A DNA stretch of 37,895 bases from an uncultured bacterium (lineage in GTDB: Bacteria > Patescibacteriota > Minisyncoccia > Phycocordibacterales > Phycocordibacteraceae). The DNA lies in the NCBI GenBank assembly GCA_963759775.1, contig CAVXAH010000001.1:104787-142681 (forward strand), read 5' to 3'. The notes beneath the pieces are model-generated. The model had not been told where the DNA came from and ran no database searches. It saw only the letters and a list, made by a program, of their open reading frames with translations. The translations under genes were made by a program, and so were the position numbers. Below are positions 7,126-31,450 of this stretch, in pieces (within the stretch, counting starts at the first letter, position 1; each line of letters starts with the position of its first letter).

Positions 7126-7130
7126 TTCAT
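7017..7130 (-). CDS. element-spanning micro-ORF (37 codons) MNPVRNRGRCRGRDTGLFTSFYRIGFGRNIFASASYF
   Basis: The frame is open from the duplicated ATG (7128-7130) to the TAA inside the distal terminus, 4 nt before the hpf ATG. The peptide is conserved with that of element C. Confidence 0.4.
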   Translation of the reverse strand: MNPVRNRGRCRGRDTGLFTSFYRIGFGRNIFASASYF

Positions 7131-7161: not shown

Positions 7162-7386
7162 TTACGAAATGGAAAATATTTTGTTTGGGGAGCGGAATCC
7201 CGCGACGAGCCGAAGTTTCCCCGGTACCACTTTCAATTCGCGCGCGAGGACGACTTTCACGCGTTCATTTGCAAGGTTTTGTTTTGCTGGCTCCTTCACT
7301 GCGATAGAAAACGTCGTTTCGTCTACCCTCTCAACCTTTTCGCGCTTCGCGCCAGGCATAACCTTCACCTTCACGTATCCACTCAT
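7162..7386 (-). CDS. DUF167 (YggU-family) protein
   Basis: The 74-aa sequence MSGYVKVKVMPGAKREKVE...LKVVPGKLRLVAGFRSPNKIF is characteristic of DUF167. Confidence 0.75.
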   Translation of the reverse strand: MSGYVKVKVMPGAKREKVERVDETTFSIAVKEPAKQNLANERVKVVLARELKVVPGKLRLVAGFRSPNKIFSIS

Positions 7387-7502
7387 CCCGTTAGAGATAG
7401 GGTACGAGCGTAGATGAACGCATCGGACTCCCATCGTGATTAGATCTTATAAAAACGGCATACCGTCGATCCTGTGTGCCGTGCCCGCTATCTCTAACGG
7501 GA
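7387..7502 (-). mobile_element. MITE-like short element B (116 bp)
   Basis: Termini are CCCGTTAGAGATAG (7387-7400) and ATCTCTAACGGG-A (7490-7502). CTCAT flanks both ends (7382-7386 and 7503-7507). Confidence 0.7.
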
Positions 7503-7507
7503 CTCAT
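7391..7507 (-). CDS. element-spanning micro-ORF (38 codons) MSPVRDSGHGTQDRRYAVFIRSNHDGSPMRSSTLVPYL
   Basis: The frame is open from an ATG that overlaps the glutaredoxin-like stop (ATGA) to the TAA 4 nt before the DUF167 ATG. Confidence 0.35.
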   Translation of the reverse strand: MSPVRDSGHGTQDRRYAVFIRSNHDGSPMRSSTLVPYL

Positions 7508-7749: not shown

Positions 7750-7843
7750 GCTCGCACTATAACAAGCAATCGGACTTTCCTGCTCGTCAATTTTCCGCTA
7801 GAATGCCCGCACGCCCTTTGGGGCGCGTTTAGTTAGAAAGTAT

Positions 7844-8140
7844 TCCGGGATAGCTCAATGGTAGAGCAGCGCCCTGTGGCTTACGCAGCTTCCAGAGGAA
7901 ACTCTGGTCGAATAACAAGGTGAATTCGGGGAAACCCTCCCCTGCCAATCGGCAGACGGGCAATCCCGAGCCAAGCTCCGACGCATTGTCGGAGAAGGTG
8001 TAGAGACTATCCCTTCGGGGAGTAGGCCGTAAGGCCGAAGCGCCTTGCACCCTTCGGGGTGATGATATAGTCCATCCCTTTTGGAAAACTTAAGGAACGA
8101 TGTAAGGCGTTGGTTGTAGGTTCGAGTCCTACTCCCGGAG
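7844..8140 (+). tRNA. tRNA-Asn(GUU) interrupted by a group I intron in the anticodon loop
   Basis: Acceptor stem TCCGGGA/TCCCGGA, D arm GCTC-AATGGTA-GAGC, anticodon stem GCGCC/GGCGT and T arm GTAGG-TTCGAGT-CCTAC are all present. The spliced loop reads CTGT|TAA (CUGUUAA, as in E. coli tRNA-Asn) and the discriminator is G. Confidence 0.85.
7878..8102 (+). ncRNA. group I intron, IC3-like (225 nt, no ORF)
   Basis: P1 forms as CUGU/GCAG with a U.G pair at the 5' splice site, and the terminal G precedes the 3' exon. The core strings AATTCGGGGAAACC, GAGCCAAGCTCCG, GAAGGTGTAGAGACTA and CTTAAGGAACGATG closely resemble the Azoarcus and cyanobacterial tRNA introns as I recall them. Confidence 0.8.
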
Positions 8141-8145
8141 CCGAG

Positions 8146-8185
8146 GAAAAATGAAAACGCCCCGCAAGGGGCATTTTCATTTTCT
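8146..8185 (+). terminator. hairpin terminator after the tRNA
   Basis: The stem GAAAAATGAAAACGCCCC-GCAA-GGGGCATTTTCATTTTC has a T-rich 3' arm. Confidence 0.55.
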
Positions 8186-8233
8186 CCGAGGCGAACGGGA
8201 GAAAGCGCGCATGCGCTTACTACCAGAGCTTCC

Positions 8234-8270
8234 GGGGCTTTTTGTTTTTCGAGGATGCGACCGGGAGAAA
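8234..8270. repeat. 37-nt exact repeat, copy 1 (GGGGCTTTTTGTTTTTCGAGGATGCGACCGGGAGAAA)
   Basis: It is identical to 9453-9489. It forms part of ~80-nt units that begin with copies of the tRNA 3'-end 12-mer. Confidence 0.8.
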
Positions 8271-9433: not shown

Positions 9434-9468
9434 AAAAACAAAGAGCCCTTTTGGGGCTTTTTGTTTTT
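9434..9468. terminator. bidirectional hairpin terminator between convergent genes
   Basis: The hairpin AAAAACAAAGAGCCC-TTTT-GGGGCTTTTTGTTTTT has an A-tract on one side and a T-tract on the other. Confidence 0.65.
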
Positions 9469-9489
9469 CGAGGATGCGACCGGGAGAAA
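9453..9489. repeat. 37-nt exact repeat, copy 2
   Basis: It is identical to 8234-8270. Confidence 0.8.
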
Positions 9490-11610: not shown

Positions 11611-11685
11611 GAAGACAGCGACCTACATCTTCATGATTTCTACCGGGTATACTAACTATGATTACTGTACTAACCGCAAACTAAC

Positions 11686-18111: not shown

Positions 18112-18360
18112 TTACTTTCGCACTATCTTAACGAGACCAATAAGCACAGATGCTCCAAGGAGAGCGACGAGGAAGCTGTAGAGGTTGAAGGTAGTAATAG
18201 CCGTTCCTCCGACAACACTCATAATCCAGCCGCCAATCACTGCACCCAGAATACCGACGACAATGTTCAGAACCGCGCCCTGCTGCGCATTCGTACCCAT
18301 AATCATGGAGGCAACCCAGCCAACCAAAGCACCAAATACAATCCAAAGAATAATTCCCAT
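18112..18360 (-). CDS. GlsB/YeaQ/YmgE-family stress membrane protein
   Basis: [23 protein letters not shown]...[14 protein letters not shown] is the canonical family pattern. Confidence 0.85.
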
Positions 18361-18444
18361 ATGTTTGTAAGTATTATAGTAGATAATAATATTTCCTCTT
18401 ACCTACTATGAAGCCGAGGCCCCCTGCAGGCTATTACACACGAT

Positions 18445-18696
18445 TTATTTTTTCACGACGACAATAGTACAGTCCGAGAGGAGTGCCGCGAGGGCACCTA
18501 CTGCCGCAAGTATCGGCACCAGGACGGCACCAACGGCACCCAAAGTAAGCGGTATCTCAAGGACGGACTCCCCTTTCTCATTCTTAATGATAATCCGTCT
18601 CGCATTACCTTCCTTAATAATCTTTTTTACTTTTTCAAGAATCCCATCACCGGTGACTTTAAACTCTTCCGTCTTTTCGTTGGTGGTATTTTCCAT
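18445..18696 (-). CDS. DUF4342-domain protein
   Basis: The EKVKKIIKEGNARRIIIKNEKGESVLEIPLTLGAVGAVL pattern is followed by a C-terminal hydrophobic segment. Confidence 0.65.
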   Translation of the reverse strand: MENTTNEKTEEFKVTGDGILEKVKKIIKEGNARRIIIKNEKGESVLEIPLTLGAVGAVLVPILAAVGALAALLSDCTIVVVKK

Positions 18697-18697
18697 T

Positions 18698-18946
18698 TTA
18701 CTTTCGGACTAACTTAACGAGACCGATAAGTACGCATGCGCCAACTATTGCAACGAGGAAACTATACAAATTGAAGCCTGTTACGTCCGATCCGCCCGTG
18801 ATACTCATGAGCCAACCCCCAATCACTGCACCCACAATACCGACGACAATGTTCAAAATTGCTCCTTGCTCGGCATCTGTTCCCATAATCATTGAAGCGA
18901 TCCATCCTACGAGCGCACCGAAGATAATCCAAAGAATGATTCCCAT
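18698..18946 (-). CDS. GlsB/YeaQ/YmgE-family stress membrane protein (second copy)
   Basis: 82 aa and highly similar to 18112..18360. Confidence 0.85.
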   Translation of the reverse strand: MGIILWIIFGALVGWIASMIMGTDAEQGAILNIVVGIVGAVIGGWLMSITGGSDVTGFNLYSFLVAIVGACVLIGLVKLVRK

Positions 18947-21822: not shown

Positions 21823-21969
21823 GTAAGCAAAGCTTACATCTGCCTCGCTCGTAAAAAATGAATGGGGCACTCATTTTGCTCCTCGCTCGTTGTTGTAAGT
21901 AAGCTTGCAACCGCCTCGTTCGGACAAAACGAACGAAAGGTTCGTTTTACTCCTCGCTCGTTGTTGTAA
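21823..21969 (+). repeat. tandem ~73-nt repeat (two units plus the start of a third), each with an A/T-tract hairpin and a CTCCTCGCTCGTTGTTGTAA box
   Basis: The 20-nt box is exact at 21879-21898 and 21950-21969. The hairpins are at 21855-21877 and 21926-21948. Confidence 0.7.
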
Positions 21970-24190: not shown

Positions 24191-24637
24191 CTAGATAGTC
24201 GGCTCTCCTTTCTGCATCCGTTTCGCATCAAGAGAGTACTTGCCTGCGCCCGTGATAAGCAGTGAGACTGCAGCGGCAAAAATGAGCAGAATAAACTCAT
24301 ACCCACCCTCAGCAACCGAGAATCCATTACGTAGGTGCACCGCAAAAAGAGCGACGACACTTACGATTCCCACAAACTTTGCGGCCCAGTGGGTAAAGAG
24401 ACCCACGATAAGAAGAAGTCCTGCGATGAGCTCACCGTAGGCGAGAACATACGCGAAGAATGTGGTTGCCGGAAACCCGAGCACGCCAAGAAAGTCAGCA
24501 ACCCATGGAATGCCTCTCGTAAACACCTTGTCAAAACCATGCCACACAAAAATAACGCCAAGCGCGACACGGAGTACGAGCGGAGCATGCTCCGCCCATT
24601 TCTCACTACAATTGCAGTTCATCAACTTGCTCATCAT
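24191..24637 (-). CDS. DoxX-family membrane protein
   Basis: The sequence LVLRVALGVIFVWHGFDKVF is followed by four hydrophobic helices. Confidence 0.75.
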   Translation of the reverse strand: MMSKLMNCNCSEKWAEHAPLVLRVALGVIFVWHGFDKVFTRGIPWVADFLGVLGFPATTFFAYVLAYGELIAGLLLIVGLFTHWAAKFVGIVSVVALFAVHLRNGFSVAEGGYEFILLIFAAAVSLLITGAGKYSLDAKRMQKGEPTI

Positions 24638-30458: not shown

Positions 30459-30962
30459 GTGTGTATGACACAAAAATCTATTATTTGGATTGTCGTAGCG
30501 GTCGTTGTGCTCGGACTTCTCGGTTGGTTTGTCTTTGGAAATCCCGCCCCCGCAAATGCACCAACCGAATCAAATACGGAGTCAAATGTGCCGTCCGCCA
30601 CTTCTCCTAAAACATCTGATCAAGCGCCTGCTCCAAAAACCGTAACCGTAACGTATTCGGATTCAGGTTTCTCGCCTGCTTTGATTGAGCTCTCCGCAGG
30701 AGACACGGTGAAGTTTGTGAACGCAAGTTCGCGAAATATGTGGGTCGGTGCTAACCAGCATCCGACGCACGGAGAATATGACGGCTCCACCAGAAGCGCC
30801 CACTGCATAGCAGGTTATGACGGACCAGCTCCTTTTGACGCGTGTGAGCCAGTTCAAAGCGGTAGCTCATGGTCCTTCACCTTCACCAAGAGAGGAACCT
30901 GGGGGTACCACGACCACATAAACGCAAGTGCACACGGCACCGTGGTTGTCTCCGGAACATAG
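30459..30962 (+). CDS. membrane-anchored cupredoxin-like protein
   Basis: An N-terminal TM helix precedes VTYSDSGFSPALIELSAGDTVKFVN..ANQHPTH and a C-terminal HDH...HGTVVV. Confidence 0.5.
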   Translation: MCMTQKSIIWIVVAVVVLGLLGWFVFGNPAPANAPTESNTESNVPSATSPKTSDQAPAPKTVTVTYSDSGFSPALIELSAGDTVKFVNASSRNMWVGANQHPTHGEYDGSTRSAHCIAGYDGPAPFDACEPVQSGSSWSFTFTKRGTWGYHDHINASAHGTVVVSGT

Positions 30963-30966
30963 TCAC

Positions 30967-31083
30967 ATGCGTCCCGTTAGAAATTGCGGACGCAGTCGAG
31001 GCTCTGACGCATGTTTGTTTATTAGCTTTAATCGGATAGGGTTCGGTCGCAAAATCTTTCTTGCGTCCGCGTCCTATTTCTAA
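30967..31083 (+). CDS. element-spanning micro-ORF (38 codons) MRPVRNCGRSRGSDACLFISFNRIGFGRKIFLASASYF
   Basis: The frame is open from ATG 30967 to TAA 31081-31083, 4 nt before the host ATG. 28 of 37 aligned residues match the element A peptide, with several synonymous third-position differences. Confidence 0.4.
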   Translation: MRPVRNCGRSRGSDACLFISFNRIGFGRKIFLASASYF

Positions 31084-31087
31084 CGGG
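30972..31087 (+). mobile_element. MITE-like short element C (116 bp), homologous to element A
   Basis: Termini are T-CCCGTTAGAAAT (30972-30984) and ATTTCTAACGGG (31076-31087). It shares an internal block GATAGGGTTCGGTCGCAA with A. It fills the whole intergenic gap. Confidence 0.7.
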
Positions 31088-31450
31088 ATGACTACTGAAC
31101 AGAAAGCCCACCTCGCGCTTCGCATTGGCGTCGCTTTTGCCTTTCTCTACCCTCCCTTTGCGGCGCTTTCTGACCCATACTCGTGGATTGGCTATTTCCC
31201 GAGCTTCCTCCACGCATTGCCGGTAAGTGAACTCGTGTTGCTCCACGCGTTTGGGGTTCTTGAGGTGGCAATCGCTCTCTGGATTCTCTCGGGACGGAAC
31301 ATCCGCATTCCTGCGGCGATCGCGACTTTCCTTCTGGTAGGGATTGTCCTCTTCAACCTTCCCGAATTCCCCGTCCTCTTCCGCGACCTCGCTATCGCCT
31401 GTATGACTGTCGCTCTCGTCCTCTGGCCAAGAACTGAAAGGACTGCCTAG
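31088..31450 (+). CDS. small hydrophobic membrane protein (120 aa)
   Basis: MTTEQKAHLALRIGVAFAFLYPPF... contains about four hydrophobic segments. The start is the ATG abutting the element. Confidence 0.55.
   Translation: MTTEQKAHLALRIGVAFAFLYPPFAALSDPYSWIGYFPSFLHALPVSELVLLHAFGVLEVAIALWILSGRNIRIPAAIATFLLVGIVLFNLPEFPVLFRDLAIACMTVALVLWPRTERTA

Follow-up and report, generated by a model that had tools for sequence, protein, structure and literature searches.

Element C is a 115-nt repeat lying between a cupredoxin-like gene and the start of a gene for a DoxX-like membrane protein, in a 37,895-nt stretch of DNA (the window) from an uncultured bacterium of the family Phycocordibacteraceae (Patescibacteriota; assembly GCA_963759775.1, contig CAVXAH010000001.1, positions 104,787 to 142,681). 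[quoted passage not shown] To the wider proposal, that the family is a new class of prokaryotic transposon, we give about even weight. In this proposal a minimal, Slx1-like, structure-specific GIY-YIG nuclease would be the sole protein of a polar parasite of A-TGAA start codons (the hyphen marks the insertion point), accompanied by MITEs across Patescibacteria and other phyla. With the same weight, the proposal holds that the parasite has no promoter or ribosome-binding site of its own and, in some copies, no start codon, that it exploits leaderless or coupled initiation of the host, and that it returns the ribosomes to a start codon of its own making. The C locus has the following features.

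30459-30962, + strand: cupredoxin-like gene upstream of C, with its stop 4 nt before the duplicated ATG
30967-31083, + strand: upstream frame of C (MRPVRNCGRS...ASASYF-stop), opened by the duplicated ATG and closed by a TAA in the 3' TIR, 4 nt before the host ATG
30968-30971 (left, TGCG) and 31089-31092 (right, TGAC), + strand: imperfect target duplication of C
30973-31087 (30972-31088 with the terminal T and A), + strand: element C, 115 nt, short non-coding copy of the A/C type
31088-31450, + strand: host gene of C, DoxX-like membrane protein, its ATG made of the last base of the element and the duplicated TG

The TIRs of C are located at 30973-30984 and 31076-31087 and are prolonged by an extended stem, CGGACGC/GCGTCCG, with a TCCT bulge. 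The terminal A (31088) doubles as the first base of the host ATG. A reading of the DNA made earlier from the letters alone (the sequence-only reading) had let the repeat fill the whole gap from the cupredoxin-like stop (30962) to the DoxX-like start (31088). This is true save for TCAC and ATGCGT, the only other bases in the interval, and the range given there (30967-31090) takes in the flanking ATGCGT and the host ATG. A second, better-scoring gene of the DoxX family is found at 24194-24637 on the minus strand, 6.5 kb upstream of the host gene of C.

The sequence-only reading had also described C as a homologue of a second short copy, element A, along its entire length. The two copies agree at 96 of 116 positions globally (82.8%; 73% for the interior alone) and share the start CCCGTTAGAAAT(T/C)GCGGACGC, the internal block AGCTTT(A/T)ATCG(G/A)ATAGGGTTCGG(T/C)CGCAA and the end GCGTCCGCGTCCTATTTCTAACGGG, which upholds this description. 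The coordinates of A on the minus strand and of C on the plus strand confirm that both turn the same end toward the host ATG. The number of copies had been put at three. The short copies A, B and C stand, but the window holds five elements with the same ends (the short ones measuring 112-115 nt), two of which, E1 and E2, are coding. The four other elements, their target duplications and their hosts are listed here.

4308-4311 and 4590-4593: target duplication of E1, TGAA
4313-4588 (4312-4589 with terminal bases), + strand: element E1, 276 nt, coding copy, frameshifted
4589-4891, + strand: host gene of E1 (host1), conserved 100-aa protein, function unassigned
4990-5274, + strand: GIY-YIG open reading frame (ORF) of E2, intact, 94 aa, running from the duplicated host ATG (MNPVRD...) to ...LSLTG
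4991-4994 and 5272-5275: target duplication of E2, TGAA
4996-5270 (4995-5271 with terminal bases), + strand: element E2, 275 nt, coding copy
5271-5813, + strand: host gene of E2, peptide deformylase (def)
6653-7012, - strand: host gene of A, ribosome hibernation factor (S30AE/HPF)
7008-7011 and 7126-7129: target duplication of A, TTCA on the + strand, TGAA on the - strand
7013-7124 (7012-7125 with the terminal T/A), - strand: element A, 112 nt, A/C type
7017-7130, - strand: upstream ORF of A, ending at the TAA of the TIR
7162-7386, - strand: host gene of B, DUF167/YggU family protein
7382-7385 and 7503-7506: target duplication of B, CTCA on the + strand, TGAG on the - strand
7387-7501 (7386-7502 with terminal bases), - strand: element B, 115 nt, short copy of a different subfamily from A/C
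7391-7507, - strand: upstream ORF of B, ending at the TAA of the TIR

All five elements are bounded by Y-CCCGTTAGARAT...ATYTCTAACGGG-R and a 4-bp target duplication of the form TNNA, mostly TGAA. The terminal 12-mer CCCGTTAGAAAT has 11 sites in the window at one mismatch or less, against 0.16 expected, and none of 100 shuffled sequences reaches 11. In each of the five the host ATG directly follows the end ...CTAACGGG, and the opposite end is preceded by ATGNNT (ATGAAT three times, ATGAGT and ATGCGT once each). The TGA of the E2 nuclease overlaps the ATG of def (ATGA). E1 is 90.6% identical to E2; an extra G near 4525 shifts its nuclease frame, which then runs in frame into the host ORF (4307-4891) to give a 194-aa fusion, and the murA-like ORF upstream (2995-4320) now ends at a TAG (4318-4320) within the 5' TIR. 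At B the stop codon of an upstream glutaredoxin-like gene, TGA, falls inside the left ATGAGT, and at A the duplicated ATG is preceded by TATACT and 7 nt. A further 12-mer, CCCGGTAGAAAT at 11636-11647 on the minus strand, has one mismatch to the repeat and no partner, and is probably there by chance.

Outside the window, copies have been collected in two censuses. The genome scan took one genome per species and accepted any 75-105 nt between both repeats with unconstrained flanks; it gave at least 120 loci, and those listed come from many lineages of Patescibacteria and from Omnitrophota, Planctomycetota, Nitrospirae, Elusimicrobia and others. In the metagenome census, contigs were scanned on both strands for the 20-mer at the 3' end of the A/C type, CGCGTCCTATTTCTAACGGG, and for this only, and at least 120 loci were found, of which 103 could be evaluated. 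Both censuses draw many of their loci from a few groundwater datasets, and the copy counts given below hold among the matches listed. All five window copies carry the 13-bp repeat YCCCGTTAGARAT at each end, as do more than 240 copies from elsewhere. On either side of the CCCG...CGGG core, the adjoining bases of 124 copies show strict complementarity (T..A in 68, C..G in 53) and are therefore part of the element. Beyond them, four bases recur as a direct repeat: their variable middle positions match in 74% of cases, where about 30% would be expected, and the target is TNNA, mostly after A or G. For the A/C type, a duplication identical at all four positions is seen in 68 of 88 copies, compared with 0-1 in shifted registers, the commonest forms being TGAA (44), TGGA (11), TGAG (10) and TGCG (7).

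The C..G-ended elements define which bases come from the element. They yield ATGAAC-element-GTGAAA, with the ATG intact on the left and a GTG on the right (in 10 of the 88 A/C copies the ATG start has turned into GTG), and therefore the element supplies the first base of the host start codon. Duplications of 5 or 6 bp are ruled out by the same arrangement. Tandem arrays have also been observed in which an element is followed by ATGAKT and a second element (L288 6132-6366, L348 3481-3680, L352, L009 5899- and L012, the L numbers being our labels for fetched loci), as would be expected if a regenerated target is hit again.

The mobility that the sequence-only reading had argued from dispersed copies finds support in the duplication, in the flanks, which are distinct in 86 of the 88 A/C copies, and in orthologous sites that are empty or independently taken by other subfamilies. 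About 45 def loci were fetched from related Kaiserbacteria-like genomes, in which def is 62-75% identical. Nearly all of these (about 44) have an empty def start of the form TATACT/TATAGT-N7-ATGAAAGAAATCGTG, at the point where the window has E2; the hexamer and its N7 spacing before the ATG amount to a -10 box at leaderless spacing. The HPF, DUF167 and host1 starts are likewise empty in most Kaiserbacteria-like relatives (about 40 for host1). In L207, short copies are found at the def, HPF and DUF167 starts, the def copy being 79% identical to B. L212 has an A-type copy, 87.8% identical to A, at the same HPF start and an intact GIY-YIG copy at host1, which is occupied by an intact GIY-YIG copy in L234 also, and further copies sit at the starts of this group of genes in L224, L234 and L239. 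The C site is empty in the Parcubacteria genome L400, where the cupredoxin gene is followed by a 24-nt spacer and then by ATGACTCCTGAG..., encoding MTPERIANLALRIGVAFAFLYPP of the DoxX ortholog, which begins ATGACT. Exact-protein look-ups of DoxX, HPF and def put no strain-level insertion polymorphism on record. Neither short nor long elements were found in the IMG/VR viral contigs, and there is thus no sign of phage carriage. In L200-L245, a TATAnT box precedes the ATG of many genes by exactly 7 nt, with no Shine-Dalgarno motif (as upstream of def, HPF and host1), which suggests that leaderless mRNAs are common in the Kaiserbacteria-like lineage.

The coding copies, which have the same ends as the short ones, carry the GIY-YIG gene. 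The E2 protein matches the Pfam GIY-YIG family (PF01541) with 63.4 bits against a cut-off of 22.6 (E = 2.5e-17), the domain spanning residues 9-79. Across 34 homologs Y13, Y24, R32, H38 and E70 never vary, and N84 is kept in at least 90%; these Tyr, Tyr, Arg, His, Glu and Asn residues we take to be catalytic by analogy with I-TevI. The nuclease looks active, judging from these residues, the Pfam match and the fold. The sole sequence match among solved structures is the UPF0213 protein BH0048, and an AlphaFold model of moderate confidence (pLDDT 75) has UPF0213 1ZG2 as its nearest fold (E = 7.5e-4), then Slx1, with I-TevI and UvrC weaker.

A search with the E2 protein gave 79 loci, 34 of which have the same repeats with one mismatch or less. 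These coding loci nearly always read ATGAAT-CCCG...CGGG-ATGAAA, with an ORF MNPVR...RFLSLTG whose TGA overlaps the host ATG, and in some copies the only methionine is that of the duplicated host ATG (MNPVRAFHYVYV...). In 23 of 28 inspected loci with a divergent GIY-YIG gene, the repeats are different yet complementary and mostly end in GGGATGA; the end pairs include CCCGTACGAAAT/ATTTCGTACGGG, CCCGATAGTG/CACTATCGGG, GCCCCGCACATAAC/GTTATGTGCGGGGT and ACCCCCACACTCAC/GTGAGTGTGGGGGT. Compensated changes at the ends are also seen in single copies (ACCG.../...CGGT and CCTG.../...CAGG). The repeats therefore co-vary with the nuclease, the candidate mobilising enzyme. Throughout the 1.7 Mb of fetched loci, the stretch between paired repeats measures only about 100-130 nt or about 270-290 nt, and in a few cases about 380 nt; no repeat-bounded copy in these loci is large enough for another transposase. 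The 40 ORFs of the window have no Pfam match to transposase or integrase families, Y1 HUH included, and no HUH gene lies between the repeats. Homologs of the nuclease fall into 3281 protein clusters (E <= 1e-5), labelled 'GIY-YIG nuclease family protein', 'putative endonuclease' or 'excinuclease ABC subunit C'; among the best 120 of the 3281, an M.PVR start is found in 89 and a ..TG end in 109.

The repeats also carry a translational signature. From the duplicated ATG the reading frame continues into the 5' repeat (ATG AAT CCC GTT AGA, MNPVR), and the 3' repeat offers three outcomes. Frame 1 (ATT TCT AAC GGG ATG) reads through into the host gene, frame 2 (A TTT CTA ACG GGA TGA), which is used by E2, places a stop over the host ATG, and frame 3 (TTC TAA), which is used by A, B and C, stops 4 nt before it. 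Termination-reinitiation coupling is known to act on stop/start overlaps and short spacings of this type (PMC6728339). In 39 of 76 A/C copies, the frame that begins at the duplicated ATG stays open as far as the stop of the repeat, compared with 12.1 +/- 3.0 when the interior is shuffled. The length modulo 3 is 1, the TAA frame, in 40 copies against 19 and 17 in the other classes. Some ATG-initiated frame reaches the 3' end in 84 of the 88 copies (49.8 +/- 4.5 after shuffling, 49 of 88 when flipped in place); the TAA ends 61 of these frames and the overlapping TGA 8, the other 15 being fusions, and the internal ATGs are concentrated at element positions 30-45. The excess of 84 over the 49 flipped copies supports selection for translation through the element. 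Upstream of the duplicated ATG, the 76 A/C copies show a -10-like hexamer at leaderless spacing in 35 cases and the end of a long upstream ORF in 35; only 3 have a Shine-Dalgarno motif.

For A, B and C, RNA folding predicts hairpins of -48 to -51 kcal/mol (z = -4.2 to -5.2), the base of which reaches the host AUG, and the sense and antisense folds are about equally stable. The extended stem, for which compensatory changes had been suggested as a check, is 19 bp long in the A/C type and nearly invariant, with only 2 double changes, both at one pair. The complementarity across subfamilies cannot separate an RNA hairpin from a DNA hairpin or from repeats recognised by a protein. An all-against-all search of the 124 listed interiors found almost no conservation between lineages, and a structured core common to the family is therefore lacking. 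Two local features of the interior have been observed beside this. At positions of about 75-90 of the A/C type, many divergent copies have a weakly conserved block AATCGRATAGGGTTCGG (N-R/Q-I-G-x-G in the element frame), which includes AATAGG, complementary to TCCTAT at the 3' bulge. Another short subfamily (L009, L014, L029, L030, L031, L043, L062, L067, L080, L104 and others) has a small hairpin just inside the 3' repeat, ACGG-stem-loop-stem-CCTATCTCTAACGGG, whose stems vary yet stay complementary (GGAAATC/GATTTCC, GGTCGCC/GGCGACC, GGAGGCG/CGCCTCC); in four copies, the inverted minority, it is at the opposite end.

The consistent orientation of A and C relative to their hosts had led the sequence-only reading to claim polarity, a claim that copies facing both ways, or lying away from gene starts, at chance frequencies would have undone and that the census upholds. 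In the metagenome census a host gene was defined as an ORF of at least 60 aa starting 0-6 nt past the end of the element, a crude definition that was controlled by a random-position baseline. Such a start is found at the 3' end of 95 of the 103 A/C-type copies and at the 5' end of 9, compared with 8.2% for random positions; gene starts are therefore enriched more than 10-fold at the 3' end and at chance level at the 5' end. The triplet directly after the element is ATG in 89 copies and GTG in 11, and only 0.8% of random positions have an ATG or GTG at +1 that opens an ORF of at least 60 aa. Several of the copies with neither end at a start are tandem arrays with a second element in the regenerated site. 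When the genome set was oriented by an internal marker that does not depend on the flanks (CCT before the 3' repeat), the host start was at the 3' end in 29 copies and at the 5' end in 6. Replication-strand bias has been rejected as the cause of the polarity, as two elements 2 kb from each other, E2 (+) and A (-), each take the direction of their own gene. The polarity may be maintained at least partly by translational coupling.

Comparison shows how the elements end and what they duplicate, that orthologous sites are empty and many unrelated sites are taken, that the repeats co-vary with the nuclease, that start codons are hit and rebuilt, and that orientation and frame are organised relative to the host gene. 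It is consistent with the following mechanism, in which we infer that the nuclease catalyses movement, that coupling operates and that coupling keeps the polarity. The element integrates with a 4-bp TNNA duplication, in Patescibacteria overwhelmingly at A-TGAA, that is, a start codon followed by A. The last base of the element (A or G) and the duplicated TG rebuild the host start codon, and the original ATG is left 6 nt upstream of the element. The cuts would be made by the GIY-YIG nuclease; as its fold is Slx1-like and it has no DNA-binding domain, it may recognise the shape of a hairpin or cruciform. The upstream ATG would keep the initiation signals of the host, either a leaderless promoter or coupling to the preceding ORF, and from this hijacked site the nuclease (coding copies) or a peptide of about 38 codons (short copies) would be translated. 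The translating ribosome would then melt the hairpin, terminate at the host start and reinitiate, so that the host gene is still expressed and the insertion is tolerated. The need for coupled host expression would in turn select the orientation and frame of the element.

Several observations weigh against this mechanism or narrow it. To our knowledge, no GIY-YIG enzyme acts as a transposase, and the E2 protein, with its 94 aa, is a bare catalytic domain without a DNA-binding domain. The duplication at C is identical at 2 of 4 positions, compared with 4 of 4 for the other window elements. In about half of the A/C copies, a stop interrupts the frame of the duplicated ATG, and an internal ATG is needed. 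The window copies are diverged (83% for A/C, 91% for E1/E2) and E1 is frameshifted; these copies are therefore old, and there is no sign of recent activity in this genome. In Omnitrophota and Planctomycetota, where C..G-ended elements prefer GTAAA, the elements are usually placed ahead of a Shine-Dalgarno motif, 7-15 nt upstream of the start (GTAAAGGAG...ATG), or directly on a GTG start; the common theme across the phyla is the immediate 5' edge of the translation start. Lastly, when the A/C copies are flipped in place, a frame still reaches the 3' end in 49 of 88. Since so many flipped copies remain frame-competent, selection for coupling alone looks too weak for the observed polarity, and a polar insertion step is a live alternative.

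According to this alternative, which we regard as possible but tentative, the polarity is set at insertion, when one strand of the element, as a single-stranded hairpin with its TCCT bulge, enters the strand opened by transcription near the start; the rest of the mechanism is kept. The strong polarity of the listed copies, with the antisense side at chance, speaks for it, as does the adherence of E2 and A to their genes and not to the direction of replication. At nearly half of the sites a -10 box stands at leaderless spacing, and the target is then the transcription start; the nuclease fold is near that of the structure-specific Slx1 (taken as the closest fold in this argument, and ranked after UPF0213 in the fold search). 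On the other hand, about half of the sites show no evident promoter and are stop/start overlaps within operons, the terminal 13 bp are symmetric, and other subfamilies have an inverted minority (6 of 35 listed copies). A different objection to the preferred mechanism, in which the GIY-YIG nuclease moves the element, is that an unrelated transposase located elsewhere might mobilise both short and long elements, the GIY-YIG gene being only a cargo, addiction or homing module. The small size of the protein, a bare catalytic domain, and the lack of any known GIY-YIG transposase speak for it. We consider it unlikely, as neither a longer element with these repeats in the 1.7 Mb of loci nor a transposase or integrase in the window was found, across subfamilies the repeats change along with the nuclease, whose coding frame they overlap at both ends, and some of the nuclease genes have no start codon of their own (MNPVRAFHYVYV...).

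Homing, in which the nuclease cuts empty alleles of the same gene, repair copies the element in and the short copies are relics decayed in place, would make the elements free-standing homing endonuclease genes and not transposons. It would account for the occupation of the def, HPF, DUF167 and host1 starts in several genomes, and GIY-YIG homing endonucleases are well known (PMC2988022). It is nevertheless improbable in view of the 4-bp target duplication, the non-coding interior that A/C copies share across 86 different flanks, the different subfamilies at the same site, the tandem arrays with a second element in the regenerated site and the want of a DNA-binding domain for a long homing site. 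The very stable hairpins that end exactly at the start codon, together with their constant position relative to genes, could also be taken for a cis-regulatory RNA of the host (translational control or a thermosensor) and not for selfish DNA. This we hold to be highly improbable: orthologous genes lack the element, its hosts are unrelated genes, lineages share no conserved interior, target duplications are present, versions with the same ends encode a nuclease, and Rfam has no match at E <= 10 in 30900-31150. A regulatory side effect of the hairpin is possible.

Compared with known systems, the elements most resemble different systems in different respects. Like the Correia/NEMIS elements, which are MITEs of Neisseria, they are 100-150 bp long, non-coding, adjacent to genes and co-transcribed with them, and have TIRs, a short duplication and long hairpins. 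They differ in the duplication (4-bp TNNA, compared with TA), in the insertion on a rebuilt start codon with a strong polarity relative to the gene, and in a same-ended partner that is a GIY-YIG nuclease and not a DDE transposase. The wedging of a GIY-YIG gene between conserved host genes, dependent on the expression signals of the host, recalls the free-standing GIY-YIG homing endonuclease genes of T4-like phages (Seg family; PMC2988022) and I-TevI. Those enzymes have a DNA-binding domain (>200 aa) and home by repair into the same locus, with neither inverted repeats nor duplication, while the protein described here is a 94-aa catalytic domain of the UPF0213/Slx1 branch. A homing endonuclease of the I-TevI/Seg type has been rejected also on the NCBIfam group I intron endonuclease model (16.5 bits against a cut-off of 56), the presence of a duplication and the unrelated targets.

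The Rickettsia palindromic elements are short palindromic mobile repeats as well, and are tolerated because translation passes through them. They are embedded in frame within coding regions, so that the protein includes them, whereas here most frames end before or on the host start and in-frame fusions make up 15 of 84 listed frames. Hairpin repeats, strand-specific polar behaviour and, on the preferred mechanism, mobilisation in trans by a small nuclease are shared with the REP/BIME-RAYT (Y1 HUH) and IS200/IS605 systems, but the elements have no HUH gene, are much longer than REPs, have TIRs and a duplication, and are located at the 5' and not the 3' ends of genes. Membership of either system has been rejected on the absence of a Y1 HUH gene from the window and from between the repeats. 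The integron attC site (RYYYAAC...GTTRRRY) has been rejected too: GTTAGAR and YTCTAAC occur in reverse order, the seventh position fails, there is no integrase and a duplication is present. The junction of element and host, either a TGA overlapping the ATG or TAA-CGGG-ATG, has the form known from termination-reinitiation coupling (PMC6728339), with the difference that the stop codon and the first base of the start codon are supplied by the repeat of a mobile element.

In a full-text literature search with little coverage of subscription journals, no description of GIY-YIG elements with inverted repeats, of elements targeting start codons in Patescibacteria or of the repeat sequence was found, and the family, which is widespread, is apparently undescribed. 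If the nuclease is the mobilising enzyme, GIY-YIG would be added to the catalytic types of prokaryotic transposases, and with about 275 bp the coding copies would be about the smallest autonomous DNA elements known. The insertion strategy would be a route by which a parasite persists in tiny, gene-dense genomes, targeting the one position in a gene where its duplication restores function and borrowing all expression signals from the host. For annotation, the elements matter in that gene starts are miscalled at their sites (the window ORFs 4244-4891 and 31061-31450 cross elements), that an insertion can change a start codon from ATG to GTG, and that in thousands of ORFs the label 'GIY-YIG nuclease' or 'excinuclease ABC subunit C' probably stands for a gene of such an element. 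The insertion sites would also provide a natural read-out of leaderless and coupled initiation in uncultivated Patescibacteria, and a small, site-preferring nuclease that rebuilds its target may be of interest as a tool.

The window has other features of its own. At the gathering threshold, the only Rfam match in the whole window is an unrelated group I intron at 7805-8095 on the plus strand (58.5 bits). It lies between the apparent halves of a tRNA (flanks at about 7843-7880 and 8100-8145, acceptor arms TCCGGGA and TCCCGGA), and ARAGORN reports no tRNA in the window. A 42-nt repeat composed of a GC hairpin, a T-rich run and ...CGGGAGAAA is found at 8163-8204, 8229-8270 and 9448-9489; it is intergenic and unrelated to the elements, perhaps a module resembling a terminator or a further small repeat. 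At 18112-18946 on the minus strand, three paralogous ORFs of about 82 aa stand in tandem (repeat D1, 76% DNA identity), and a unit of about 70 nt occurs in two tandem copies at 21830-21969, each ending in CCTCGCTCGTTGTTGTAA. Direct repeats at 69-676 and 1383-1991, spaced by about 1.3 kb and 80-86% identical, overlap an MreB-like gene (1927-2964) and its neighbour at 751-1833, which has no Pfam match.

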